From NCBI GenBank assembly GCA_051010635.1, contig JBPCVJ010000039.1, positions 2,489 to 66,488 on the forward strand: a stretch of 64,000 bases of DNA, in the 5' to 3' direction. Origin of the DNA: Alphaproteobacteria bacterium. Its GTDB lineage: Bacteria; Pseudomonadota; Alphaproteobacteria; JASGCL01. Each line of letters starts with the position of its first letter. The stretch's first letter is position 1. Of this stretch, positions 5,755 through 56,137 are shown piece by piece. The notes beneath the pieces were generated by a model. It saw nothing but the letters and a program-made list of their open reading frames with translations. It was not told the DNA's origin and searched no databases. The position numbers were made by a program, and so were the translations under genes.

Positions 5755-8700
5755 TTAGATAAAATTAATATTATCTTGCCCGCCCACTAGGTCAAGGAAT
5801 TGTTGGTAAGTTAGGGCGGCAGTGCCATTTTGGTCAAGGCTAAGACCATTAGGGGTTGCGAATTCGCCATTCAAGTTCGGGCTTTGCCAATCAAATGCAT
5901 TAAAATTATCTTTATCGCCATAGATATAAATTCGGTCATTTCCTGTGCCATCGCCATCAATATCAAACATAATATGACCCGTGCCATCATTGGCATTATC
6001 TTGAATAAAATACCAATGGTACTGGTTTTGATTGCCATCAGGGTCGGTGAAGACAATAAAACTATCATCTAAATTATCAGCGGTTAAGTTATGATAATTT
6101 TTGCCATCATCATTGGTATAATGTGCGTTGGAAAAATAAATATCTGCCGATAGAATAACATTGCCATTGTATATGGCATCATCAACATAAATAGGGGTGT
6201 TGGGTGGTGGGTGGTTTGGGGATTCATTAATATCAACCAAAGACAAAATGAAAGTTTGGGTTATGGATAGGGCGCCATCGCCCACCCCCGCACCACCATC
6301 TGTGCCGATAGCATTGATGGTGATGGTAAAATAATTGCCAGCATGGCCATTATATGTGCCCTCATAATCAAGGCTTGATATAAGGGTCAAAACACCTTCG
6401 GTATCTATCATGAATAGATTGCTATCAGTGCCGCCTATGCTGTAGCTAATATCTGCACCATCGGTATCGACTGCGGTGAAGGTGGTGATGGTTAAATCAG
6501 ATGCATTATTTTCATTGACCGTCGTCCCAGCACTTTGTGTGCCAGACCATTCGGTCATTTCATCGTTAACATTGTTGATGCTTAAAACAAATATTTGGGT
6601 TATCGCCGATGTGCCATCGCCCACCATAATGCCATCGGCTGTGCCGATGGCATTAATTGTTATGGTAAAATAATTGCCATCATAACCGCCATAGATGCCT
6701 TCATAATCGATCGTAGATTTTAAGCTCAACCCCCCCATATTATCAATCGAAAATAAATTGCTATTGATACCGCTGAGAGAATAGGCAATGCCAGCTCCAT
6801 CGGCATCGGTTGCTATAAAGGTGGCAAAGGCTACATTGACAACATCGTTTTCATCTATCACCGCCCCCGCATTTTGTGTGCCAGACCATTCGGTTGGTTG
6901 GTCATTAAGGTTTGTTTCATTGGTGCCATCATTGTTGATGGTTAAAATAAAAGTTTGGCTAAGAATCAAAGCACCATCACCCACCCCATCTCCACCGCTG
7001 GTGCCAATCGCATGGATGGTGATGGTAAAATAATTACCATAATGACCATTATAAGTTTTTTCATAATCAATGCTGGATTTTAGGGTTAAAACCCCCGCTG
7101 TATCTATAGCAAATAAATTTCTATCATCGCCTGCTATACTATAGCTAATATCCGCCCCATCGGCATCGGTTGCCATAAAGGTGGCAAGGCTTACATCAAC
7201 CGCATTATTTTCATTGATGGCGGCACCTGTGCTTGGTGTGCTAAGCCATGCGGTTGGTTGGTCATTCACATCAACTTCGTCTTCGTCGCCAACACTTAAA
7301 ATAAAAATTTGGGTTATTGCCAATGCACCACCGCCTATGCCTTGCCCACCGCCTGTGCCAAGTGCGTGGATAGTGATGGTAAAATAATCCCCCCGATGCT
7401 CATGATAGGTTTCTTCATAATCAATGCTGGATTTCAAAATTAAAACACCATTGTCATCAATAGTAAATAAATCACTATCATCGCCTGTGATACTATAGCT
7501 AATTCCTACCCCATCGGCATCGGTTGCCGTAAAGGTGGTTAATACCAATTCAGAAACATTATTTTCATCGATCATGACTCCTGAACTCGGCGTGCCAGAC
7601 CAAATTGCCATTTGATCATTAACATTGGGATCATCCACCCCATCATCAATCACAGTTAAAATAAAAGTTTGGGTTATCGCCAAAGCACCATCGCCTCTTC
7701 CAAAGCCATCGCTTGTGCCAAATGCACGAATGGTTATCGTAAAATAATTCGCAACATGGTTATTATAGGTTGTCTCATAATCAATGCTGGATTTTAAAAT
7801 TAAAACACCATTTTCATCAATGCTAAATAAATTACTATCAGTCCCAATGATACTATAATCAATGTCGGTCCCATCGGCATCTATAGCGGTAAAGGTGGCT
7901 AACATCAATTCAGAGGCATTATCTTCATTAATCATGCCGCCCGTGCTTGGTGTGCCAGACCAAATTGCCATTTGATCATTGCTGTTAGGTTCGTCTTGAT
8001 TATTAAGCGTTAAAATAAATATTTGGCTGATAGATAATGCACCATCGCCCACCCCCGCACCACCATCTGTGCCTATCGCATTGATGGTGATGGTAAAATA
8101 ATTGCCATTATGACGATTATATATGCCCTCATAATCAAGGCTGGATAGGAGAGTCAAAGCACCTTGCGAATCTATGGTGAATAGGTTGGTATCGGTGCCT
8201 GTGATGCTATAATTGATATTGTTGCCATCAAAGTCAATAGCACTAAAAATAGTCAATATCAGACCAGAAGCATTATTTTCATCAATCATTTCACCCGCAC
8301 TTGGTGTATCCGCCCATCTGGTAGGTTGGTCGTTAAGATTCAGTTCGTTAATCCCATCATTGCCAATGCTTACAACAAAATTTTGGGTTAAAACAATTCC
8401 ACCCGCACCCACACCATCACCGCCTGCCGTGCCGATCGCATTGATAGTAATGGTATATTGATGACTAACCGTTTCATAATCAAGCAATGATATAAATGTT
8501 AGAATACCAGTATCGCTATCAATAGAAAAATAAACACTATCTGTTCCAGTAATTGAATAACTGATACCTGCACCATCATCATCAATAGCGGTAAAAGTGG
8601 TTATCACCACATCGGTTGTATCTTCTTCAATAATAAAAATATCCGAAGTTTGATTATCCGACCAAATGGTTGGTTGGTCATTAACATCGGGGTCATTCAC

Positions 8701-10086
8701 ACCATCATTATCAATACTCAAAACAAAATTTTGGGTTATCACGCCGCCGCCATCATTTTCACGAGCCGATATGATAATACTATAGATAGGGTTAGTGCGT
8801 TCTTCAAAATCAAGCGACGATATGAATGTTAAAATCCCATCATGATTAATATAAAAATAATCGGCATCAGCACCGCTTAAACTATATTGAATAAACCTTG
8901 AACTGCCACCACCATCTACATCAACTGCCAAAAATGTGCCAATCAATATGTTGGCGGTATCGGTTTCGCTAATAGACAAATCGCTTGAGGTTGTCATCCA
9001 AGCCGTATCATCATCAATGTTATAGGCTTGCAAAACAAAAATGGTTGAAATAGATTCATTGCTATCGCTGGAATGGGCATACACCACAACCGAAAAAATA
9101 CCATCGCCATTGGTAGAAGCCTCATAATCAAAACTACCTATTAATCGCAATTCACCAGTATCCTCATCGATTGAAATGGTCGCAAGGGCCGCCTCATCAC
9201 CAGTCAAACTATAACTTATTTCACTATTATCGCCATCACGCGCTGAAAAAAATGCCAAATGATAATCATGCAAACCATCCATTTCATTGGCTGATAAAAA
9301 ATTCCTTTGCGTGCCGTGCCACAGCAGTGGATATTCATCAACATTGGATATTGATAAAACAAATAATGTACTTATCACCAGAGTGCCATCGCCTGATGCC
9401 GCCCCGCCATCTCTACCACGGGCATTGACCAAAACGGTGTAATTGCCCCAACGCTCCCTATCGGTAATTCCTAAACTTAACCAATAATTACTAAGATATT
9501 CATAATCAGGCTGATGTTTTAACCTTATCACGCCATCGCCACCTATCATCATAAGGGCAGTGCCAATACTATCTGGTGTATTGCTTAACCAATAATCTAT
9601 GCCTGGTCCATCAGGGTCTGTGGCAGAAAAAGTCGCAACCCCGCTACCGATATTTGCCGTTTCATCTATGGTTGCCGATGATGGATTACCGACAAACCAT
9701 CTAGCTACCCTATCATTCAAGCCATCTTCATGCAGATTGACAACCGACAAAACAAACAAACTGGTTAGGGCGGGCTCATCAATTACCCTATCGCTTGGTG
9801 CAGCATTAACCACAACGGTATAATTATTCCAGCGTTCTTGATTATAATTGCCAACATCACGCCAATATTGGATTAGATATTCATAATCAACAAAATGCCT
9901 TAATCTAATAACACCATCTAGCCCGATGGTCATAAGCACCAAACCAGCATTATCATCACTGGTGAGCCAATAGCTTATATCGTTGGATTCAGTATCGCTG
10001 GCAACAAAACTTGCTACAGGTTCGCCAACGCCTTTGTTTTCTTCCACATAGCCATCTTCTGGATTGACATCCCAAGTCGTTGTCAT
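5755..10086 (-). CDS. Giant secreted adhesin-like protein with at least 8 tandem cadherin-like repeats
   Basis: 1443 aa. A roughly 110-aa unit repeats: NDQPT.WSGT.S.G..I.ENN.S.L.L.TFTA.DADG..ISYSI.G.DSNLF.ID..GVLTLKSSIDYE..YN.H.GNYFTITI.AIGT.GG.GVGDGAL. Each unit shows cadherin hallmarks (DxDxNDQP linkers, ATDADG calcium sites, LDYE). There is no N-terminal signal peptide. The C-terminus carries Gly/Asp-rich DIDGDGTGNDRIYIYGD, which resembles RTX/T1SS-type calcium-binding and secretion regions. Confidence 0.85.
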   Translation of the reverse strand: MTTTWDVNPEDGYVEENKGVGEPVASFVASDTESNDISYWLTSDDNAGLVLMTIGLDGVIRLRHFVDYEYLIQYWRDVGNYNQERWNNYTVVVNAAPSDRVIDEPALTSLFVLSVVNLHEDGLNDRVARWFVGNPSSATIDETANIGSGVATFSATDPDGPGIDYWLSNTPDSIGTALMMIGGDGVIRLKHQPDYEYLSNYWLSLGITDRERWGNYTVLVNARGRDGGAASGDGTLVISTLFVLSISNVDEYPLLWHGTQRNFLSANEMDGLHDYHLAFFSARDGDNSEISYSLTGDEAALATISIDEDTGELRLIGSFDYEASTNGDGIFSVVVYAHSSDSNESISTIFVLQAYNIDDDTAWMTTSSDLSISETDTANILIGTFLAVDVDGGGSSRFIQYSLSGADADYFYINHDGILTFISSLDFEERTNPIYSIIISARENDGGGVITQNFVLSIDNDGVNDPDVNDQPTIWSDNQTSDIFIIEEDTTDVVITTFTAIDDDGAGISYSITGTDSVYFSIDSDTGILTFISLLDYETVSHQYTITINAIGTAGGDGVGAGGIVLTQNFVVSIGNDGINELNLNDQPTRWADTPSAGEMIDENNASGLILTIFSAIDFDGNNINYSITGTDTNLFTIDSQGALTLLSSLDYEGIYNRHNGNYFTITINAIGTDGGAGVGDGALSISQIFILTLNNQDEPNSNDQMAIWSGTPSTGGMINEDNASELMLATFTAIDADGTDIDYSIIGTDSNLFSIDENGVLILKSSIDYETTYNNHVANYFTITIRAFGTSDGFGRGDGALAITQTFILTVIDDGVDDPNVNDQMAIWSGTPSSGVMIDENNVSELVLTTFTATDADGVGISYSITGDDSDLFTIDDNGVLILKSSIDYEETYHEHRGDYFTITIHALGTGGGQGIGGGALAITQIFILSVGDEDEVDVNDQPTAWLSTPSTGAAINENNAVDVSLATFMATDADGADISYSIAGDDRNLFAIDTAGVLTLKSSIDYEKTYNGHYGNYFTITIHAIGTSGGDGVGDGALILSQTFILTINNDGTNETNLNDQPTEWSGTQNAGAVIDENDVVNVAFATFIATDADGAGIAYSLSGINSNLFSIDNMGGLSLKSTIDYEGIYGGYDGNYFTITINAIGTADGIMVGDGTSAITQIFVLSINNVNDEMTEWSGTQSAGTTVNENNASDLTITTFTAVDTDGADISYSIGGTDSNLFMIDTEGVLTLISSLDYEGTYNGHAGNYFTITINAIGTDGGAGVGDGALSITQTFILSLVDINESPNHPPPNTPIYVDDAIYNGNVILSADIYFSNAHYTNDDGKNYHNLTADNLDDSFIVFTDPDGNQNQYHWYFIQDNANDGTGHIMFDIDGDGTGNDRIYIYGDKDNFNAFDWQSPNLNGEFATPNGLSLDQNGTAALTYQQFLDLVGGQDNINFI
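6330..8680. repeat. Intragenic tandem DNA repeats of about 330 bp. These are the cadherin-like repeat units of the giant gene.
   Basis: Periodic near-identical segments are visible in the ORF translation and in recurring DNA strings such as ccatcggcatcggttgc and gataatagaaat-like blocks. The boundaries are approximate. Confidence 0.6.
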
Positions 10087-14498: not shown

Positions 14499-15500
14499 TT
14501 ATCTATTTGCTATTTTAACCCATGCCCCTTCGGTTTGTTTTAATCTTGCCAATTTTAATTTCTTAAAATCATCACCTGCATGATAGGAAGACCGCGTCAA
14601 TGGGCTAGCCGATACTATCAAAAAACCTTTTGCCAAAGCCACTTCAGCCAATTCGTCAAATTCTTTTTGATACCAGAATTTTTTTACCGCGGCATGTTTT
14701 TTGGTTGGTTGTAAATATTGACCAAGCGTTAAAAAATCCACCCCTGCCGAACGGGCATCATCCATCACTTGCAATATCTCATTGCGTTCTTCGCCAAAAC
14801 CCAACATCAAACCAGTTTTGGTAAAAATATTAGGCGAAAGTTTTTTCATATTTTCTAACAGCGATAAGGATGTATAATAACGCGCGCCAGGGCGAAGTTT
14901 GAGATAAAATCGCGGCACAGTTTCTAAATTATGATTAAAAACATCAGGCGGGTTTTGTGCTATCACATCAATCGCATTAGATTTATGCTTAAAATCAGGG
15001 GTAAGAATTTCTATGGTCGTATCGGGATTCATTTTTCGCACCGCCATAATAACTTTTTGAAAATGTGTCGCTCCACCATCGGGTAAATCATCACGATCCA
15101 CCGAGGTAATAACAACATGCGATAGCCCCATTAATTTGACTGCCATGGCTATATTATATGGCTCTTTGGGATTGAGTAGCCGAGGGCGACCTGTTTTAAC
15201 ATAACAAAACCCACAGGCACGGGTGCAAATATCCCCCATTATCATAAAGGTGGCATGTTTTTTTTGCCAACATTCATGGATATTGGGACAAGCGGCTTCG
15301 GCACAAACAGTGTGAAGGTTATAATCCCTAACAATTTTTTCAGTCGCTTGCCAAGATAAAGATGGAGTGGTTGCCACCCGCACCTTTAACCAATCAGGTT
15401 TGGCAAGGCTCAACTGGTCAGGGCGGTGGCGTTTTTCTGGATGGCGGGGCGGAGCAACATTGTTGCTATTAGCAAAACGGCGAAAAGATGGCGAAGTCAT
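14499..15500 (-). CDS. lipA: Lipoyl synthase
   Basis: Both cysteine clusters are present: [12 protein letters not shown] and the radical-SAM motif CTRACGFC. Confidence 0.92.
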
Positions 15501-27505: not shown

Positions 27506-28504
27506 TTAAAAGGCATAACCAATTTTTGCCCCAACCTCTATCGTTGTATTGGCAGGTTCTGTAAAAGAAAGCGTAACATTGCCATCACTGCTAACATTAG
27601 TGCCAGAACATACACTATCTTTTATAATATCATCTTTTGAACTATTTAATTCCCCTACACATGGCAAAGTATAATTAACCGATTGACTATCAGCTATATC
27701 CCAATAATTAAAAAATGGTTCAAAAACAATGTTTTTATAACCCAATGCTAGCGATATTTTAATACCATAACCGACCGATTGCTGATTTTTAAAAGGACCA
27801 CCGGGTAAATTAAATTTAATAAGTCGAAAATTATTCTCATCAACTTGCCCAACTTCTAGCGGTTCAAAATGTGTATGTTGCGCACCAATTAATAATAGAT
27901 CATATTCGCCACCAAGCGAAATATGCCAAACATCATCATTATAGTTATATTTGATACCAAAAGGCATATAACCAATATGATTTTCTCGGTCATAAGCCAA
28001 ACTCCCCGTATCAGTTCTTTTACCACCATCATAATTACCTGTATAACGATAACCAAAACCAGAAAAAACATGAAAAGAATGATTTGGCTTAATTATTTTT
28101 TCATAGCCTGTCAAAAGCCTTATTTCGGTCAAAAAATAGCTAGCATTATCATGCGATCCTGTACCCGCTGAGGTATATTGCAATGACCCGCCATAAATTG
28201 TTATATCAGGTGCTATGGTGCCACCAAATTCAAATCGCAATTTACCAAAATAATTCGCACCAAATAGAGGACCTTCATTTTTAATAAAAAATGCACCATT
28301 ATTGGTTTCGGTATAATTGTAATAGGCACTTAAGGCAGATATTTTATGTTCATAAGTGGCGGCACGAACAGAATGTGTGGTTATCATATATGCTGATGAT
28401 ATCATCACAGCATAGATGATAGCTAAACATAATTTTGTAAAATACCCCTGCCTTAAGAACATCACAATAGGCACAATAATTCTATTCATCATCATGTTTA
28501 ACAT
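27506..28504 (-). CDS. Outer membrane beta-barrel protein
   Basis: C-terminal ...AKIGYAF with terminal Phe, aromatic-rich alternating strands, N-terminal hydrophobic segment. The tracked ORF start at 28570 would overlap lpdA by 44 nt. An internal Met at about 28504 or 28495 is more likely. Confidence 0.5.
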   Translation of the reverse strand: MLNMMMNRIIVPIVMFLRQGYFTKLCLAIIYAVMISSAYMITTHSVRAATYEHKISALSAYYNYTETNNGAFFIKNEGPLFGANYFGKLRFEFGGTIAPDITIYGGSLQYTSAGTGSHDNASYFLTEIRLLTGYEKIIKPNHSFHVFSGFGYRYTGNYDGGKRTDTGSLAYDRENHIGYMPFGIKYNYNDDVWHISLGGEYDLLLIGAQHTHFEPLEVGQVDENNFRLIKFNLPGGPFKNQQSVGYGIKISLALGYKNIVFEPFFNYWDIADSQSVNYTLPCVGELNSSKDDIIKDSVCSGTNVSSDGNVTLSFTEPANTTIEVGAKIGYAF

Positions 28505-28526
28505 ATCATAAAATAAATAAAATTGT

Positions 28527-29933
28527 TTAAATATGAATCGCCCGACCAAAAGCTGCCATAGCCGATTCATGTATCATTTCTGATAAGGTGGGGTGGGGGA
28601 AAACACTATGTATCAATTCGGCTTCGGTGGTTTCTAGGTTGCGTGATAAGGTAAAACTATGAATCAATTCGGTTACCTCGGCACCTATCAAATGCGCACC
28701 CAATAACTCACCAGTTTTGGCATCAAATATAATTTTCACCATACCCATGTCTTCTCCAAGCGCGATAGCCTTACCATTACCCTGAAAAGGAAAACGACCA
28801 ATTTTTGTCTTGATATTTTTTTCCTTCGCCTTGTCCTCAGTCAAACCAACCGATGCAATTTGTGGATGACAATAGGTGCAACTTGGAATATTATCTTTAT
28901 TAAGGGGGTGGAGTGGCTTCACCCCAGCAATATGCTCAACCGCTATCACCCCTTCATGTTCAGCCTTATGAGCCAGCCATGGCGGCGCACCCATATCGCC
29001 TATGGCATAGATACCAGCCTCAGCGGTTTCAGCCCATTGATTGGTAGCCACAAAACCCTTTTCAAGTTTGATGGCAGTTTTTTCTAAACCAAGGTTTTCG
29101 CTATTAGCCGTTATACCCACTGCCGATAACAAAACATCAGCGGTCAAACTTTCAATCCCCTTGTTGGTTTTAATATCCAATTTCACCCCATCGGCAGTTT
29201 TGCTTAATTTTTCAGCCTTGCTATTGGTTTTAAAATCAATCCCTTGGGTTGCCAATATTTTTTCAGCCATGGTTGATATTTCTGTATCCTCTTGCGGTAA
29301 GATACGCGGCAATAATTCCACCACCGTTACCTTAACACCAATTTCATTATAAAAACTGGCAAATTCTATACCAATAGCACCGCTACCTAATATTATCATC
29401 GTTTTGGGTTGCTTTTTTGGCTTTAAGGCATGTTTATAATGCCACACCAGCACGCCATCGGTTTCAAACCCCGCTATTTCCTTTGGGCGGGCACCAGTGG
29501 CAAGAATGATATTTTTGGCGGTTATGGTTTTTTCACTTTTATCAGCCATCGCCACCACCACCGACCGCTTGCCTACCGCCCCGCCTGAAAGCCGTGCCAT
29601 GCCGTTAAAAACTTGAATATTATTTTTTTTCATTAAATATTCAACCCCTTGCGACAATTTATCGGCAATCCCACGAGACCTTGCCACCATACCATTCAGG
29701 TCAGATGCTACATCCCCCGCCACAACACCAAATGTTTTGGCGTGTTTGGCAAGACGCAAAACCTCTGCCGATCTTAACAATGCTTTGGTAGGGATACAGC
29801 CCCAATTAAGGCATATTCCACCCAAATGATGTGCCTCGACCAATGCAACCTTTAATTTTAATTGTGCGGCACGAATGGCCGCCACATAGCCACCAGGACC
29901 ACCACCAATAATTATTAAATCAAAATCTGTCAT
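28527..29933 (-). CDS. lpdA: Dihydrolipoyl dehydrogenase (E3)
   Basis: IIIGGGPGGYVAAIRAAQL (FAD-binding), the redox disulfide GICLNWGCIPTK, and the C-terminal HPTLSE interface motif. Confidence 0.95.
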   Translation of the reverse strand: MTDFDLIIIGGGPGGYVAAIRAAQLKLKVALVEAHHLGGICLNWGCIPTKALLRSAEVLRLAKHAKTFGVVAGDVASDLNGMVARSRGIADKLSQGVEYLMKKNNIQVFNGMARLSGGAVGKRSVVVAMADKSEKTITAKNIILATGARPKEIAGFETDGVLVWHYKHALKPKKQPKTMIILGSGAIGIEFASFYNEIGVKVTVVELLPRILPQEDTEISTMAEKILATQGIDFKTNSKAEKLSKTADGVKLDIKTNKGIESLTADVLLSAVGITANSENLGLEKTAIKLEKGFVATNQWAETAEAGIYAIGDMGAPPWLAHKAEHEGVIAVEHIAGVKPLHPLNKDNIPSCTYCHPQIASVGLTEDKAKEKNIKTKIGRFPFQGNGKAIALGEDMGMVKIIFDAKTGELLGAHLIGAEVTELIHSFTLSRNLETTEAELIHSVFPHPTLSEMIHESAMAAFGRAIHI

Positions 29934-29950: not shown

Positions 29951-30859
29951 TTATGAAAAAAACATCAATGCAGGGTCTTCGACATAATGTTTAAAATATT
30001 TTAATAATTCTGCACCGATAGCACCATCAACCGCCCGATGGTCGCAAGATAATGTTGCCGACATAATGGGTGCGACCTCAACCCTGCCATCTTTGACGAT
30101 AGGTGTATCAATGCCCGCACCCACCGCCAAAATTGCCCCCTGCGGCGGATTAATCACCGCATCAAATTGTTTAATGCCAAACATACCCAAATTAGATAAA
30201 GATATCGTGCCGCCTTGATATTCCTCGGGTTTTAATTGCCCCTGTTTGGCTTTGCTAGCCAAAGATTTCATTTCAGTTGAAATGACCTGTAATGATTTTT
30301 TTTCGGCTTGCCTTACGATCGGGGTAATCAAACCACCATCAATTGCCACTGCCACCGCTATATCAACCGATTGAAATAGTTTGACACCATCTTTTGTAAA
30401 ACTGGCATTGGCATTCGGCACCTTGCGACAAGCCATCGCCAAAGCCTTAATAATAATATCATTGATACTAATTTTGCTACCCTTGCCCGCCGCATCGGTA
30501 GGATTTAATTTTTGCCATTTTTCCCGTAAAGTCGTGATATGGCTAAGATCGCAATCAACCGTCAAATAAAAATGTGGTATTGTGGTTTTAGACAGCGTCA
30601 AGCGTTCGGCAATCACACGGCGCATAGCGGTGATAGGCGTTATAGTAAAAGGTGGTTCGAAATTATTATCTAATTTCATCGCGGTTATAGGGGCAGAATC
30701 TTGCGCCACATCGCCCGTGGTCGCCATTTTATCAATATCGGCTTTAACAATTCGCCCATGCGGTCCTGAACCCATTATTCCAGCAATGTTGATACCCCGT
30801 TCCATCGCCAATCGCTTAGCAAGGGGGCTAATAAAAATGCGTTCTTGATGATTCATCAT
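29951..30859 (-). CDS. pdhC: Dihydrolipoamide acetyltransferase E2 core lacking any lipoyl domain (PSBD plus catalytic domain only)
   Basis: It starts directly with the peripheral-subunit-binding domain (SPLAKRLAMERGINIAGIMGSGPHGRIVKADI). The catalytic domain has SCDHRAVDGA. No lipoyl (biotinyl/lipoyl attachment) domain is found upstream in any frame. Only about 150 bp lie between it and the next gene. Confidence 0.85.
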   Translation of the reverse strand: MMNHQERIFISPLAKRLAMERGINIAGIMGSGPHGRIVKADIDKMATTGDVAQDSAPITAMKLDNNFEPPFTITPITAMRRVIAERLTLSKTTIPHFYLTVDCDLSHITTLREKWQKLNPTDAAGKGSKISINDIIIKALAMACRKVPNANASFTKDGVKLFQSVDIAVAVAIDGGLITPIVRQAEKKSLQVISTEMKSLASKAKQGQLKPEEYQGGTISLSNLGMFGIKQFDAVINPPQGAILAVGAGIDTPIVKDGRVEVAPIMSATLSCDHRAVDGAIGAELLKYFKHYVEDPALMFFS

Positions 30860-31012
30860 TTATTTTTGCTTGTTAATTATAAAATAACTTTTATAATAGG
30901 AAAGATAAAAAAGCAACCAAAAAACCTCTCTATCATCATATCATTTTTAAGCTTGAAAATTGATAGCAAAAATAATAGGTTAGATAAAGATACAAAAATA
31001 AAACAGGAATAG

Positions 31013-31348
31013 ATGATGGCTAAATTTTTTAAACTCCTTATCGCCTTGATTATGGAATTGGTTAATTTTGTTTTTATAGGTGCATGGTTAAGTTTTAAGC
31101 TTTTGCTTATAACAATTTTTTTCTTTGCAAAAAAAAAGGGCAATGCACCTGTATTGAATACCCAAGGTCAAAAAGCTTTGGACGAGGATTTCAAAAACCT
31201 GACCAAGAGTTTGCGTAAATCTTTTGTTGCATTATTTAACATCTCGGCATTTACGGGTGAAAAAGCCAAACAAAAATATCAAGAAATCAAACAACGGCAA
31301 CCAAGCAAAAAAAAGCCGAAAAAGAAAAAATCAAAAAAGAAAAAATAA
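31013..31348 (+). CDS. Small membrane protein with a poly-lysine C-terminal tail (paralog 1)
   Basis: 111 aa. N-terminal hydrophobic hairpin (FFKLLIALIMELVNFVFIGAWLSFKLLLITIFFF). C-terminus SKKKPKKKKSKKKK. It is paralogous to the next ORF and is transcribed antisense to the pdh operon. Confidence 0.5.
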   Translation: MMAKFFKLLIALIMELVNFVFIGAWLSFKLLLITIFFFAKKKGNAPVLNTQGQKALDEDFKNLTKSLRKSFVALFNISAFTGEKAKQKYQEIKQRQPSKKKPKKKKSKKKK

Positions 31349-31361
31349 ATAAGGAATCGCC

Positions 31362-31691
31362 ATGAATAATTCTTTTAAACTGATATTTGACCTATTATTG
31401 AGTCTGGTTGTTTTTATGTTGCGTGCCGCATGGTTGGGGTTTAAATATCTATTGATAACAATTTTTTTCTTTGCCAAAAAAGATGGCAATGACCCCGCTT
31501 TGGGCGTTGCCGGACAGCAGGCCTTAAAAAAAGATTTTAAGAATATCGGCAAGGGGTTAAAAGTATCTTTCAAAAAAATGGGGGGTATTTTTAAGGACCT
31601 GGTTAATGACCCCAATTCTACCAGCACCAAAGTTAAATCAAAATTAAAAAAAATAAAAAGCAAAACCAAAATTAAAACACCTGAAAAATAA
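31362..31691 (+). CDS. Small membrane protein with a lysine-rich C-terminal tail (paralog 2)
   Basis: 109 aa. It shares with the upstream paralog the conserved core AWLxFKxLLITIFFFAKKxGNxPxL...GQxALxxDFKN. AAGGA ribosome-binding site 8 nt upstream. Confidence 0.5.
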   Translation: MNNSFKLIFDLLLSLVVFMLRAAWLGFKYLLITIFFFAKKDGNDPALGVAGQQALKKDFKNIGKGLKVSFKKMGGIFKDLVNDPNSTSTKVKSKLKKIKSKTKIKTPEK

Positions 31692-31696
31692 TTTTA

Positions 31697-33127
31697 TTAT
31701 TTGCCTACCAGCGAACGCACCGCATTAATAATATCGGGTATTTGTGGCAAGGCTAGTTTTTCTAAATTCTGGGCATAGGGTAGGGGGACATCTTTACCGC
31801 ATACTCTAAAGGGGGCGGCATCAAGCCAATCAAAACATTGTTCATTAATAACCGCCATAATTTCAGCACCAACCCCTGATTGTGCCCAACCCTCCTCAAC
31901 TGTAATAACACGATTGGTTTTTTTTACCGATGAAACTATCGCTGGTATATCAAGTGGTCGTAAAGTTCTTAAATCTAAAACCTCAACCTCAATCCCCGAT
32001 TTTGCCAATTCTTCGGCCGCTTGTAAAGATTTTCCTACCATAATTGAAAAAGTAATAATGGTCGCATCGCTCCCAATACGCTGTAATTTGGCTTTGCCTA
32101 TCGGCACTTGCCAATCTTCGCTATCAGGCACTTGAAAAGATTGCCCATAAAGTATTTCATTTTCTAAAAATATCACTGGATTATTATCCAAAATGGCTGA
32201 TTTTAATAAACCCTTGGCATCGGCCGCAGTGTAAGGGGCAACTACTTTTAACCCTGGCACATGGCTATACCAACTGGCAAAACATTGTGAATGTTGTGCC
32301 GCCACCCGTGCCGCGGCGCCATTGGGACCACGAAATACTATCGGACAATTTATTTGCCCCCCCGACATATAAAGGGTTTTGGCGGCACTATTAATAATTT
32401 GATCCATCGCTTGCATTGAAAAATTCATTGTCATAAATTCTACTATTGGACGCAATCCATGAAAGGCGGCCCCGATACCAATACCAGCAAAACCCATTTC
32501 GGTTATGGGGGTATCAATAATGCGTTTGTTGCCGAATTGGTCAAGCAAGCCTTGCGTTACTTTATAAGCCCCTTGGTATTCACCAACCTCTTCACCCAAT
32601 AAAAATACCTTATCATCGCGCTGCATTTCTTCTTTCATAGCATCACGCAAAGCCTCCCGCACTGTTTGCATTGTCGTTTTGCCTGTCCATTCGTTTTCAG
32701 CAACAGGCATTGCTTCAGTATTTATATGTGGTGCAACGGGTGGATGTTGTTGCAAAGGTTCTTCTACTAGTGGTGGTGCCATATCCGCACCATTGCTTGC
32801 CATATCATTTGCCGTATTTTTCGCCATATCGGTTGGTGCATGATGTGATGTATTTTGGCTTTTTGCCATCACATCTTCCAATGTTTCATCATCTTCTAAA
32901 ATAACCGCTATAGGGCTACCTACCTGTATTTTTTGGCTACCACCCGCAATGATAATTTTTGCCAATGTGCCACTATCAACCGATTCAACCTCCATGGTTG
33001 CTTTATCAGTTTCTATTTCGGCAATAATTTGTCCGGGTGTAACTTTATCACCCTCCTTGACCAACCAACGGGCAAGATTACCCTCGGTCATGGTGGGGGA
33101 AAGGGCGGGCATTAAAATTTGTGGCAT
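31697..33127 (-). CDS. pdhB: Pyruvate dehydrogenase E1 beta subunit with an N-terminal lipoyl domain
   Basis: The N-terminus [29 protein letters not shown]...[12 protein letters not shown] is a lipoyl domain with its lipoyl-lysine. An Ala/Pro-rich linker follows, then the transketolase-like E1-beta region ([26 protein letters not shown]). This fusion is known from alphaproteobacterial pdhB. Confidence 0.92.
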
Positions 33128-33136
33128 ATTAATTTT

Positions 33137-34147
33137 TTATTGCAAAATATCGGTCCATAGGTCGGTTTCATTGGGTTCAGGGGAGTCTTCAGCAATTTTA
33201 ACCGCTTCAAGTATAATGGTTTTAATTTTTTGTTCGGTATCTTTTTCTGTTTTTTCATCAAGCTGTTCATTATCCTTTAATATTTTTTTTATATGTTCTA
33301 TCGGATCATGTTTTGCGCGTATTTCATCAACCTCCTCACGGGAACGATATTTCGCTGGGTCAGACATTGAATGACCACGATAGCGATAGGTCTGTGCCTC
33401 AATAATAAATGGTCCATTGCCAGATTCTACATATTGAATTGCCTCCTTACCCAAATTGCGCATCGCCTCAACATCCATACCATCAACTTGGCTACCCTTA
33501 ATACCATAGGCAATGCCCCTATCACATAATCTGCTGTCATTGGCTGATGACCGCTTTGCCGATGTTCCCATCGCATAACGATTATTTTCAATCACAAATA
33601 TCGCTGGCAATTTCCATAAAGCTGCCATGTTAAAGGTTTCATAAACCTGCCCCTGATTCAACGCGCCCTCGCCCATATAGATAAAAGACAAACCCAATTT
33701 TTCTTTTTTGTCGCCAATGCCATTTTCATAACGATATTGTAATGCCAAAGCAAGCCCAGCACCAAGTGGCACTTGTGCCCCAACAATACCATGCCCGCCA
33801 TAAAAATTCTTTTTACGGGAAAACATATGCATCGAACCACCCTTGCCCCGACTATATCCCGCACTGCGACCTGTCAATTCCGCCATAACCCCCGAAGGTT
33901 TCATACCTGATGCCAACATATGCCCATGGTCACGATAACTGGTTATCACACAATCATTTTTTTTCATCACCGTCTGTAAGCCCACCACCACCGCTTCTTG
34001 CCCTATGTAAAGATGACAAAACCCCCCTATCAAACCCAACCCATAAAGTTGCCCCGCCCGTTCTTCAAAACGGCGAATAAGCAACATTTGATAAAAATCT
34101 TGCTTGAGTTGTTCAAAGCGTTGGTCATTAGCTATATTTTTTGTCAT
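33137..34147 (-). CDS. pdhA: Pyruvate dehydrogenase E1 alpha subunit
   Basis: Thiamine-diphosphate-dependent E1-alpha pattern: YRDHGHMLASG and GxGAQVPLGAG. 336 aa. Confidence 0.92.
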   Translation of the reverse strand: MTKNIANDQRFEQLKQDFYQMLLIRRFEERAGQLYGLGLIGGFCHLYIGQEAVVVGLQTVMKKNDCVITSYRDHGHMLASGMKPSGVMAELTGRSAGYSRGKGGSMHMFSRKKNFYGGHGIVGAQVPLGAGLALALQYRYENGIGDKKEKLGLSFIYMGEGALNQGQVYETFNMAALWKLPAIFVIENNRYAMGTSAKRSSANDSRLCDRGIAYGIKGSQVDGMDVEAMRNLGKEAIQYVESGNGPFIIEAQTYRYRGHSMSDPAKYRSREEVDEIRAKHDPIEHIKKILKDNEQLDEKTEKDTEQKIKTIILEAVKIAEDSPEPNETDLWTDILQ

Positions 34148-34383: not shown

Positions 34384-35973
34384 ATGATTGATTATCCTGA
34401 CCCAACCGTTTTAGAAAAACCTCTAGAAACCACCGAGGGTTTATCTTATCATAATGATAATTTGCCTGATACTATACCATCACAGCTTAAAGCAACATCG
34501 GCAGACCATCATACCGCTAAGCGGCTTGAAGTGCCCTATAATATCGAATTGGAAGCCGCGCTACTCGGTGCCTTATTACGCAATAATGACCTTTATGGTT
34601 TGGTGGCAGATATGGTCCATAAGTCTGATTATTTTTATCATCCCCTGCACCGCAAAATTTTTGATTATTTTATAGAATTACAAGATAAGGGGCAACTTGC
34701 CACCCCTGCCACTATGCGCCATTTATTTCAAAGCGATAGTAAAGATGGCGATATCAACAAACATGATACCAGCCGTTATTTAGCAGAGATTGTAAGCTAT
34801 GTGCCAAGTTTGGTTAATGTGAAAGATTATGCCAAGGTTATTAGAGACCTTTATCGCAAACGACAATTAATAAACATCGGTGAAGATATGATCATCCGAG
34901 CACGCGATTTAACCGACCATAAAGCCACTTCTGACAAACAGATAGAATGTGCCGAAGAAGAATTATTTCAATTAGCAGAACATGGTGTTGCCGAAAAATC
35001 TTTTGACCGCCTATCAGTATTTAGCAATCGCTTAATCAGTAGTATTGAAAAACGCCGACAAGATAAATCAAAATACGCTGGGGTTGCCACAGGATTTCCG
35101 CAGATGGATGATTTTTTTGGCGGGCTTAATCCATCTGATCTTTTTATTTTGGCGGCCCGGCCCGGTATGGGCAAAACCGCTTTTGCCGTTTCATTGGCGG
35201 CACAGGTGGCAGGCATTCCTTTGGTGATGGATGCCATACCCGAAGATGAGATAACCGCAAGGCAAACCGAAAAAAAACATGTATTATTTTTTTCATTAGA
35301 AATGTCGGCAGAACAATTAACCAATCGTATTTTATGTCAAATGACGGGCGTATCATCTATCAATGTGCGTCGCCAGATGAGCGATGATGATTTCCAAAAA
35401 TTCTGTCGGGCGATCAATGATTTAAAAGACTCCCATTTGTATATTGATGACAGCCCATCGATTTCCATTACCACTTTACGCCAAAAGGCAAGACGCGCCA
35501 AACGCTTGATGAAAAATCTTGATTTAATTTTGGTGGATTATTTACAATTATTGCAACCATCAGGTTTAACCCGGCATGATAATCGTGTAGCCGAGGTTAC
35601 CGAAATTTCACGCGGTCTTAAAATTATTGCCAAAGAACTCGAAGTGCCATTGGTAGCACTTTCACAATTATCACGGGATGTTGAAAAACGCTCTATCAAA
35701 CCAACTGGCAAGGTGCCACAGCTTTCCGATTTGCGTGATTCGGGATCGATTGAACAAGATGCCGATATTGTCGCTTTTTTATATCGTGAAGCCTATTATT
35801 TAAAAAATGAAAAATCAGACAATGAAGCACAGGAGCAAACCAGACAAAATAGATTAAAAGAAATTGAGCATCTTGCGGAACTTATCATTGCCAAACACCG
35901 CCATGGTCCTATTGATAAAATTCCATTTCATTTTAATTCAATTACCAGCCAATTTTCAGCCATGCAAAAATAA
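34384..35973 (+). CDS. dnaB: Replicative DNA helicase
   Basis: GFPQMDDFFGGLNPSDLFILAARPGMGKTAFA (Walker A with DnaB-specific context), LSQLSRDVEKR and HRHGPI. Confidence 0.92.
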   Translation: MIDYPDPTVLEKPLETTEGLSYHNDNLPDTIPSQLKATSADHHTAKRLEVPYNIELEAALLGALLRNNDLYGLVADMVHKSDYFYHPLHRKIFDYFIELQDKGQLATPATMRHLFQSDSKDGDINKHDTSRYLAEIVSYVPSLVNVKDYAKVIRDLYRKRQLINIGEDMIIRARDLTDHKATSDKQIECAEEELFQLAEHGVAEKSFDRLSVFSNRLISSIEKRRQDKSKYAGVATGFPQMDDFFGGLNPSDLFILAARPGMGKTAFAVSLAAQVAGIPLVMDAIPEDEITARQTEKKHVLFFSLEMSAEQLTNRILCQMTGVSSINVRRQMSDDDFQKFCRAINDLKDSHLYIDDSPSISITTLRQKARRAKRLMKNLDLILVDYLQLLQPSGLTRHDNRVAEVTEISRGLKIIAKELEVPLVALSQLSRDVEKRSIKPTGKVPQLSDLRDSGSIEQDADIVAFLYREAYYLKNEKSDNEAQEQTRQNRLKEIEHLAELIIAKHRHGPIDKIPFHFNSITSQFSAMQK

Positions 35974-36000
35974 CCAACCATTATCTAGCATCATCATTGA

Positions 36001-36648
36001 TTAGCGGCGTAAATGTGATGTTATTAATATAATACCCCAAGCCGCCAAATAACCAAACACCAATCCACCCAAATGACCAGCATTGGAAATGGCTGTATCG
36101 GCTAGCCTATTCGCTGTTAGTGCTGTCAAAAAATTCAATGCCAAAAAGAATATAATAAAAAACATAGCACGACTTTTGGTTTCAAATGGCGGGGGCATAG
36201 CAATATCATTCACTGCCAAAAATAAACTCGCCCCGATCCATGCCGCCACCCCCGCTGACGAACCAATAATGCCAATATCGGATGCTGTGGTCAGCAGATG
36301 AAAAATCGCCCCACCGCAAAGCCCAGTAAAAAAAACAAATCCCCAACCCCACCCAGAAAGCGCGTCATAAATCACTTTAGAAAAAACCACTCCCACCACC
36401 ACATTAAACAATAGATGACTAATGTTACCATGCAAAAACCCATAGGTTATAATTTGATAGGGCCAAATACCAGAAAAAACTTGCCACTGCCAATCACGCC
36501 ATGGCAAAAACATATATTGTTGTATGATGGTTGTTTTGTCAAATAAAGAAAAAATATTAACCAGCAAAAAAATTATTGCCATCACCAATGCCCATAATAC
36601 CACTGCATTTGGCAAATTAAAAAATGTTATAGATTTTTGATAACGCAT
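36001..36648 (-). CDS. Rhomboid-family intramembrane serine protease
   Basis: Six or seven TM helices. GSSAG (catalytic Ser in the GxSG motif) and a downstream AGHLGGLVFG (catalytic His). Confidence 0.75.
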   Translation of the reverse strand: MRYQKSITFFNLPNAVVLWALVMAIIFLLVNIFSLFDKTTIIQQYMFLPWRDWQWQVFSGIWPYQIITYGFLHGNISHLLFNVVVGVVFSKVIYDALSGWGWGFVFFTGLCGGAIFHLLTTASDIGIIGSSAGVAAWIGASLFLAVNDIAMPPPFETKSRAMFFIIFFLALNFLTALTANRLADTAISNAGHLGGLVFGYLAAWGIILITSHLRR

Positions 36649-55351: not shown

Positions 55352-56137
55352 TTATCGTATCAATTTGATACCATAACCTTTTTGATGACCATTCGTATCC
55401 TTTAGAATTTTATTATTGATAGTTTCCAAAACTTTTAGACCAAAATTATTACTTAATTTATCAATTATTCCATATTGATAAAGCACATAAAATTTAAGAA
55501 TAGTTGTTATCATATCACATATTTCTAATCCACAGATTCTATGTTTTTTATTCCTTTCTTTTATTTTATTTGTTGTGATTACTTTTTGAATTTCGTTACT
55601 ATCGCTATAATCGGTGCCCTTATTATAAAAATTTTCAAATGTTTTTCTTAATTGTTGGTTTTCATGTTTTCCCCTCTGTTCTATCATAACATCACCTTGT
55701 TTATTATTTTCTATTAAAAAACGAACATATCTTTCTAATAAAACATTTAAAGTATAGTGGTAAGGATGGTAAGGGTGGAGATAACGATTTTTATGATTTG
55801 TTTTATCTAATACGACAGATATGATATTCATATTATTTTTAGATAAAAAGTCCAAATATATTTTATCAAATTTATTTTTTAGATTAATATCATTTTTTAA
55901 TTTAGAAAAAATGCCTTTTCCATTAATCACATCAATAAGATGAAAATTAGGTAAATGACCATTTGTATCAATAAATAAATTTCTTATTTCTTCCCATTCA
56001 GTGCTAATTTTTTCATAGATATCATTATGAATAATAACGCCTGATAGGCAAAGATAGCGAAATGGTATATCATCTAATGTTGAGTAACGATGATCCCCGC
56101 TTTCATCAATATATATTCGATATTTATCTTTCATCAT
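55352..56137 (-). CDS. DUF3800-like protein in a singleton AT-rich island
   Basis: 261 aa. It begins MMKDKYRIYIDESGDH, and from memory the N-terminal YIDESG motif is the hallmark of the Pfam DUF3800 family. It is visibly more AT-rich than its neighbours. It has its own terminator. Confidence 0.55.
   Translation of the reverse strand: MMKDKYRIYIDESGDHRYSTLDDIPFRYLCLSGVIIHNDIYEKISTEWEEIRNLFIDTNGHLPNFHLIDVINGKGIFSKLKNDINLKNKFDKIYLDFLSKNNMNIISVVLDKTNHKNRYLHPYHPYHYTLNVLLERYVRFLIENNKQGDVMIEQRGKHENQQLRKTFENFYNKGTDYSDSNEIQKVITTNKIKERNKKHRICGLEICDMITTILKFYVLYQYGIIDKLSNNFGLKVLETINNKILKDTNGHQKGYGIKLIR

Follow-up and report, generated by a model that had tools for sequence, protein, structure and literature searches.

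The window analysed here, a 64-kb stretch of an alphaproteobacterial metagenome-assembled genome (MAG; assembly GCA_051010635.1, contig JBPCVJ010000039.1), carries the operon of a pyruvate dehydrogenase (PDH) complex whose E2 component has no lipoyl domain. The open reading frame (ORF) listing and the Pfam scans gave the order, on the minus strand, as pdhA (E1 alpha), pdhB (E1 beta, with an N-terminal lipoyl domain), a spacer of 837 bp, the gene of the dihydrolipoamide acetyltransferase E2 (pdhC) and lpdA (dihydrolipoamide dehydrogenase, E3). The same order, with an insert of about 840 bp carrying two small genes on the opposite strand, had been described in an earlier note on this DNA, and the two genes, named s1 and s2, were indeed found on the plus strand of the spacer. 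That note had also asked for read-level assembly support across positions 30850-31700. Two Logan assemblies that are independent of the MAG (SRR33949960 and SRR33949963) agreed with the window, with matches to 30228-34143 at 99.97% identity and to 30479-32583 at 100%. Since the locus is reproduced in both, its junctions are not an artefact of the MAG assembly.

The E2 protein (302 aa, N-terminus MMNHQERIFISPLAKRL) was found to contain the subunit-binding domain (E3_binding, PF02817, residues 8-42; 52.3 bits against a cut-off of 23.7), the catalytic domain (2-oxoacid_dh, PF00198, residues 71-300; 267 bits) and nothing else that Pfam recognised. The lipoyl family PF00364 was absent from the Pfam scan of these 302 residues. 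The protein begins 5-6 residues ahead of the subunit-binding domain, and a TAA stop codon stands immediately 5' of its ATG, which confirmed the previous observation that this E2 starts directly at its peripheral-subunit-binding domain. The accompanying claim, that no lipoyl domain is encoded upstream in any frame, was also borne out: no lipoyl remnant was detected when positions 30855-31705 were searched by tblastn with the PdhB lipoyl domain and translated in six frames. Furthermore, no second E2 and no second lipoyl domain were found anywhere within the 64-kb window, and LpdA (468 aa) gave no match to PF00364 in the Pfam scan.

The presence of a lipoyl domain at the N-terminus of PdhB, already proposed from the letters alone, was verified by the PF00364 match listed in the table below. 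The whole protein was recognised by NF008854 with 751.6 bits against a cut-off of 454, over model positions 4-462 of 464. Its lipoyl-lysine is K42, within the sequence IETDKATME, and the DKA motif is kept in all members of the clade described in the next paragraph. The proportion of non-synonymous differences (pN) in this domain was 0.08-0.20, against a proportion of synonymous differences (pS) of 0.63-0.69. When the PdhB lipoyl domain alone was used for a database search, mostly short fragments with 63-75% identity were obtained, and the query's own PdhB was not among the matches.

Homologues of the E2 were searched for among 5.8 billion clustered proteins. The seven closest (P0002-P0008; 67-77% identity, 296-307 aa) contained only the E3_binding and catalytic domains, PF00364 being present in none of them; the next matches, at 61% identity or less, were full-length proteins of 414-501 aa with a lipoyl domain. 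In a neighbour-joining tree of the catalytic domain, the eight lipoyl-less E2s formed a single clade in 200/200 bootstraps. This clade stands on a long branch, the mean distance between clade and outgroup being 0.53 versus 0.28 among the outgroups. The start residues M-x-x-Q-x-RIFISPLA are common to the whole clade.

The genomic context of these relatives was read in four other lineages: the MAG CBDHFT01 (loci L001 and L002) together with its close relative, a 1.63-Mb ENA contig (L081; ERZ25068833 ctg58208_67x_c); SRR23378604 (L082) with GCA_030054115.1 (L083); SRR32617084 (L084); and SRR13639653 (L085). A lipoyl-bearing pdhB was followed, after 40-64 bp, by a lipoyl-less E2 in L001, L002, L081, L082, L083 and L084. 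In L085 the 5' end of pdhB is lost at the contig edge, and the E2 lies 75 bp downstream. Between 1 and 12 codons are open upstream of the relatives' E2 start. The insert was absent from the pdhB-E2 junction in all of the relatives' loci read (four lineages), where the spacer measures 40-75 bp. A full-length E2 was found in all 39 outgroup loci that have both pdhB and E2. From the clade and its synteny we infer that the loss of the E2 lipoyl domain is ancestral to the lineage and happened as a single event in the last ancestor shared by this small group of alphaproteobacteria. Because the relatives share the same truncated E2 without the insert, the loss is older than the insert and independent of it.

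Other short E2 matches were not accepted as lipoyl-less. P0113 and P0115 (295 aa) had been considered as another lipoyl-less lineage and were rejected, since P0113 starts at base 13 of its contig and represents a contig-end truncation; the remaining short matches lie on 1-2-kb contigs or are labelled partial. In the MAG CBDHFT01 the same pdhB-E2 junction occurs twice, at the end of contig_1 (525 kb; L001 1-1344) and at the start of contig_4 (41 kb; L002 4554-6862), owing either to an assembly break inside the operon or to two strain variants.

The E2 gene is under strong constraint. In pairs of the window E2 with clade members, pN was 0.12-0.24 versus a saturated pS of 0.65-0.76, equal to the constraint on pdhA, pdhB and lpdA. 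It was seen in both the catalytic domain and the subunit-binding domain (pN 0.16-0.35, pS 0.68-0.88 in the latter), fast evolution being confined to the linkers, such as that of PdhB with a pN of 0.42-0.54. His274 and Asp278 of the DHRxxDG motif and the SNLG motif were invariant across clade and outgroups, and the reading frame was intact in 8/8 clade proteins (five lineages, 296-307 aa). Judged by these signatures, the E2 is a functional core acetyltransferase and its decay is excluded, so that the decaying pdhC which had been suggested before was not upheld.

In its AlphaFold (AF2) model (predicted template modelling score, pTM, 0.70), the E2 shows a two-helix binding domain, a disordered linker at residues 49-64 and a normal catalytic domain, the latter resembling the 60-mer cores of human, pig and bovine PDH E2 (E2p) with a template modelling (TM) score of about 0.8 and 50-52% identity. 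Of the hallmarks of a canonical E2p, the protein has the subunit-binding domain and the DHRxxDG of the catalytic domain and lacks the N-terminal lipoyl domain, and the canonical E2p equivalog TIGR01349 scored 376.4 bits, below its cut-off of 445, with only model positions 137-436 aligned. Two families of short E2s also scored below their cut-offs (NF008815, 129.8 versus 378; NF011416, 219.5 versus 429). The protein groups with the mitochondrial-type alphaproteobacterial E2p and, because it lies outside NF008815 and NF011416, its lipoyl-less state represents an independent origin within that type. The clade is further marked by 12 fixed substitutions, R252T and G189S among them, at sites whose conservation in the outgroups is 90% or more, and by its C-terminus (window 29951-29965), which reads ...PALMFF[S/A] in 8/8 clade E2s (P0001-P0008) and ...MLL, one residue shorter, in 105/112 outgroup proteins. 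The C-terminal tail region makes inter-trimer contacts in known E2 cores, and the altered MFF[S/A] tail may change core assembly.

In alphaproteobacterial PDH, E2 and E1 beta normally carry one lipoyl domain each, the latter as an N-terminal fusion, and the two are nearly interchangeable. When the PdhB domain was compared with the E2 domain within each of the 39 outgroup genomes, the mean identity was 79% (58-93%), above the 71% found between PdhB lipoyl domains of different outgroup genomes. Since the value within genomes exceeds that between genomes, the two domains co-evolve and look interchangeable, and one of two such redundant domains could be lost. The possibility that the clade's PdhB domain had been transplanted from E2 was addressed by comparing it with both outgroup sets, and it proved about equally similar to the PdhB domains (63.5%) and to the E2 domains (62.5%). 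A simple 5' deletion of the E2 gene would be the more economical account.

Additionally, the gene for lipoyl synthase, lipA, was found in the window about 14 kb from the pdh operon. Its presence, as read from the sequence, shows that the organism makes the lipoyl cofactor. The features of the locus are collected in the following table.

Table 1. Features of the PDH locus and the lipoyl synthase gene, in window coordinates.
Feature	Position	Strand	Supporting match or remark
pdhA, E1 alpha, 336 aa	33137..34147	(-)	PF00676 E1_dh, E 1.2e-99; same position in relatives
pdhB, E1 beta with N-terminal lipoyl domain, 476 aa	31697..33127	(-)	Pfam Biotin_lipoyl, Transket_pyr, Transketolase_C; NF008854
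Lipoyl domain of PdhB, residues 3-76	32900..33121	(-)	PF00364, E 1e-19
PdhB flexible linker, about 73 residues, between lipoyl domain and E1 beta core	32675..32893	(-)	
pdhB-E2 spacer, 837 bp, specific to this genome	30860..31696		
s2, probable orphan small gene, 109 aa	31362..31691	(+)	
s1, probable orphan small gene, 111 aa (110 from second ATG)	31013..31348	(+)	
Lipoyl-less E2, dihydrolipoamide acetyltransferase, 302 aa	29951..30859	(-)	PF02817 + PF00198
lpdA, dihydrolipoamide dehydrogenase E3, 468 aa	28527..29933	(-)	Pyr_redox_2, Pyr_redox_dim
lipA, lipoyl synthase	14499..15500	(-)	TIGR00510, 361.9 bits versus cut-off 310.25

The starts of pdhB (33127), E2 (30859) and lpdA (29933) are preceded by AT-rich leaders with no recognisable Shine-Dalgarno motif.

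The spacer that separates pdhB from E2 in this genome has a GC content of 0.28-0.34. The GC contents of s1 and s2 are 0.31 and 0.33, against 0.314 for the intergenic sequence of the window, and their GC contents at third codon positions (GC3) are 0.33 and 0.37, against a gene mean of 0.354. Identity between the two genes was 49% along the full alignment, rising to 57% in the best tblastn segment, and they form a DNA repeat with a period of 346-347 bp. Their differences fell mostly on third positions (29, 18 and 40 at codon positions 1, 2 and 3; pS 0.76, pN 0.31), their alternative frames are full of stops, and AGGA stands 6-10 nt upstream of both starts. They are tandem paralogues and probably real coding genes. 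Both products carry a strongly hydrophobic N-terminal stretch, helical in s2, and a lysine-rich basic tail. The AF2 model of s1, of low confidence (mean predicted local distance difference test score, pLDDT, 67), showed helices at 2-41 and 50-95 followed by a disordered Lys-rich tail. The pair are probably small basic proteins with a membrane anchor, produced by a tandem duplication.

Only self-matches of s1 and s2 were obtained in the 5.8 billion clustered proteins and in a profile search of 1.84 billion representative proteins, and neither gave a Pfam, NCBIfam or credible PHROG family match. No match to a transposase, integrase or phage family was detected in the spacer, and no terminal inverted or direct repeats and no target duplication; the repeat scan recovered the s1/s2 duplication and weak AT-rich chance matches only. 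No terminator-like site was found in the spacer, and promoter-like matches there were no commoner than in shuffled sequence. The two small genes had previously been called foreign. That description was not supported, as they are orphans of native base composition without marks of mobile elements; they look like young, lineage-specific genes.

A different small gene, encoding a DUF4760 protein of 90-174 aa with a hydrophobic N-terminus, was observed between E2 and lpdA in three of the relatives' loci (L081 9011-9535, L082 9094-9441 and L083 5419-5691). It is absent from this position in L084, in L085 and in the window, where the gap is 17 bp. It seems that small genes have repeatedly entered the spacers of this operon.

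Taken together, we consider it probable that the lipoyl-less E2 is functional, that its lipoyl domain was lost once in the clade, that the swinging arm comes from PdhB, and that the spacer genes are later and unrelated. The lipoyl domain of E1 beta is the likely sole arm of the complex. With a little more reserve, we favour a PDH whose swinging arm is carried exclusively by the peripheral E1, the E2 core being a bare scaffold-plus-catalyst. In the ancestor, the E2's own lipoyl domain and the first linker would have been deleted, which redundancy with the PdhB copy would have permitted. In the present complex, E1 (alpha2 beta2) would dock on the subunit-binding domain that the E2 core has kept, and K42 of the E1-beta lipoyl domain, held on a flexible linker of 60-76 residues, would be reductively acetylated at the E1 active site. 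The arm would then swing across to the active site of E2, hand over its acetyl group to coenzyme A (CoA) there, and finally be re-oxidised by E3 bound to neighbouring subunit-binding domains. The 837-bp spacer with s1 and s2 would be a later, species-specific addition unconnected to the lipoyl loss.

The proposed arrangement was compared with known systems. The first description of an E1-beta lipoyl domain, in the PDH of Zymomonas mobilis, is credited in PMC7873978 to Neveling et al. (1999, FEMS Microbiol Lett 177:117). The window shares with this alphaproteobacterial type the kind of operon and the architecture of PdhB (lipoyl domain, linker, E1 beta; NF008854), and a PdhB lipoyl domain was also present in the 39 outgroup loci. 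In Z. mobilis and in 39/39 outgroup loci, however, E2 keeps its own lipoyl domain, whereas the operon of the window and its clade has the E1-beta domain only. In Mycoplasma hyopneumoniae, PdhD (E3) is the lipoylated PDH subunit (PMC7873978), and the same source refers to Matic et al. (2003, Gene 319:99) for a lipoyl domain on PdhD and its absence from PdhC. That complex resembles the present one in its lipoyl-less E2 and in an arm placed on a peripheral subunit of the same complex; it differs in its donor, which is E3 there and proposed to be E1 beta here, where LpdA has no lipoyl domain, and the two lipoyl-less E2s have independent origins.

The OdhA/KGD proteins of corynebacteria and mycobacteria (PMC10415282; Hoffelder et al. 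2010, J Bacteriol 192:5203) are likewise similar in having an E2 catalytic domain without its own lipoyl domain that uses the lipoyl groups of another polypeptide. In corynebacterial OdhA, the E2 domain of the 2-oxoglutarate type (E2o) depends on lipoyl groups given in trans by the E2p AceF (PMC10415282). OdhA/KGD is an E1o-E2o fusion of the 2-oxoglutarate complex that borrows E2p lipoyl domains; the window E2, in contrast, is a stand-alone E2p which keeps its subunit-binding domain and whose donor would be its own E1. The best sequence matches to its binding and catalytic domains (E 2e-80) were mammalian and fungal 60-mer E2p cores (PDB 7uom, 8piu and 6ct0), which differ in having one or two N-terminal lipoyl domains; the clade is also distinguished by its altered tail, ...MFF[S/A] in place of ...MLL. 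No published report of a lipoyl-less E2 together with a lipoyl-bearing E1 beta in one PDH operon was found in a literature search that covered subscription journals only in part, and looking up the assembly accessions there likewise gave no result.

Several other explanations were weighed against this reading. A recent disruption, in which the small-gene cassette deleted or displaced the lipoyl-coding 5' part of pdhC in this genome, had been implied in the earlier note, where insert and missing part were said to coincide exactly, and the spacer does occupy the exact place at which a canonical pdhC would encode its lipoyl domain. Nevertheless, the four other lineages have the same truncated E2, with the same start residues, 40-75 bp after pdhB and with no insert, and the spacer holds no lipoyl remnant; the position is incidental, the short E2 is a trait of the lineage, and we find a recent disruption barely credible. 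Just as little weight is given to a pdhC in decay within a PDH complex that is being lost. The long branch of the E2 clade, its 12 fixed substitutions at otherwise conserved positions and the small genome would fit such a decay, but they stand against intact frames in all eight proteins, purifying selection as strong as that on the rest of the operon, invariant catalytic residues in a predicted fold that is that of a normal E2p catalytic domain, and the retention of lipA. The idea that the insert is a horizontally acquired mobile cassette, which its occurrence at this site in this genome only and a GC content (0.31-0.33) below that of the flanking pdh genes could suggest, is improbable too, though less so: the spacer shows neither homologues in the two protein collections nor mobile-element families or terminal repeats, and its composition matches that of the intergenic sequence and the genes of the window.

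The most serious competitor accepts a functional short E2 and places the source of its lipoyl groups elsewhere in the genome, in a second full-length E2p, in SucB or in a free-standing lipoyl protein, the PdhB domain keeping its usual alphaproteobacterial role. As a rule, an E1p is specific for the lipoyl domain that belongs to it, and that of PdhB is E2p-like, as seen from its identity to the E2 domain of the same genome in the outgroups; moreover, the most economical donor is one that is attached to E1 from the outset and encoded in the operon itself. The 64-kb window contains neither a second E2 nor another lipoyl domain, and the genomes are small. On the other side, the sequence covered is this window of the genome, and lipoyl sharing between complexes has a precedent in OdhA with AceF (PMC10415282). 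On balance we regard an arm from elsewhere as unlikely, though clearly less so than the three preceding explanations.

Some points also weigh against PdhB as the only source of the arm. This genome was covered over 64 kb and each relative over no more than 17 kb, which leaves room for a second full-length E2p or a free lipoyl protein. No clear sign of adaptation following the loss was seen in PdhB, either in its lipoyl domain or in the linker: the clade's ratio of lipoyl-domain to E1-beta-core divergence was 0.7-1.6, the outgroup median being 1.27, so that relative constraint is unchanged, and the linker measures 60-76 residues, which lies within the outgroup range of 46-107 (median 54). Lipoyl domains only on bound E1 would also mean fewer arms per core than in any characterised PDH complex, and activity could be poor. 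The earlier suggestion that the E2 is served by the PdhB lipoyl domain is the one that the evidence favours, the sole-arm role having been deduced from sequence comparison.

Other features were observed in the window and in the relatives' loci. A protein of 1443 aa with multiple cadherin domains (PF00028, E 3e-76) is encoded at 5755-10086 (-); it may be an adhesin and is possibly related to lifestyle, and a protein with a weak cadherin match lies downstream of lpdA in L081. The lowest GC content of the window (0.25; GC3 0.16) was that of a DUF3800 gene at 55352-56137 (-), and a DUF3800 gene adjoins pdhA in L081 (4533-5318). An ORF of 354 aa at 27506-28570 (-), with no Pfam or NCBIfam match, ends in ...GYAF like an outer-membrane beta-barrel; as listed, it runs 44 bp into the 3' end of lpdA, and its true start is probably downstream, at a signal-peptide-like stretch. 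Defence-type genes, for an E2-CBASS domain protein and a TIR-domain ThsB-like protein, were found in L082 (2019-3259) between dnaB and a rhomboid gene, and are absent from the corresponding place of the window (34384-36648). No rRNA was found in the 64-kb window, and only three tRNAs.

It is a textbook rule that E2 carries the lipoyl arms of the 2-oxoacid dehydrogenase complexes. In the known exceptions the arm either sits on E3, as in M. hyopneumoniae, or is borrowed from another complex, as in OdhA, and here the relocation would be to E1. The E1-beta lipoyl domain was first described in the late 1990s in alphaproteobacteria, where the mitochondrial ancestor is placed, and to our knowledge no role has yet been demonstrated for it. 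The clade appears to be a natural deletion experiment, and it suggests that this domain alone can support the whole catalytic cycle. For annotation, the clade E2s fall below the equivalog cut-off and are named only 'family protein', which should not be taken as loss of PDH. If the proposed arrangement is true, it would be the first functional assignment for the E1-beta lipoyl domain; the conservation of that domain would be explained, and its function would be directly testable with four recombinant proteins.

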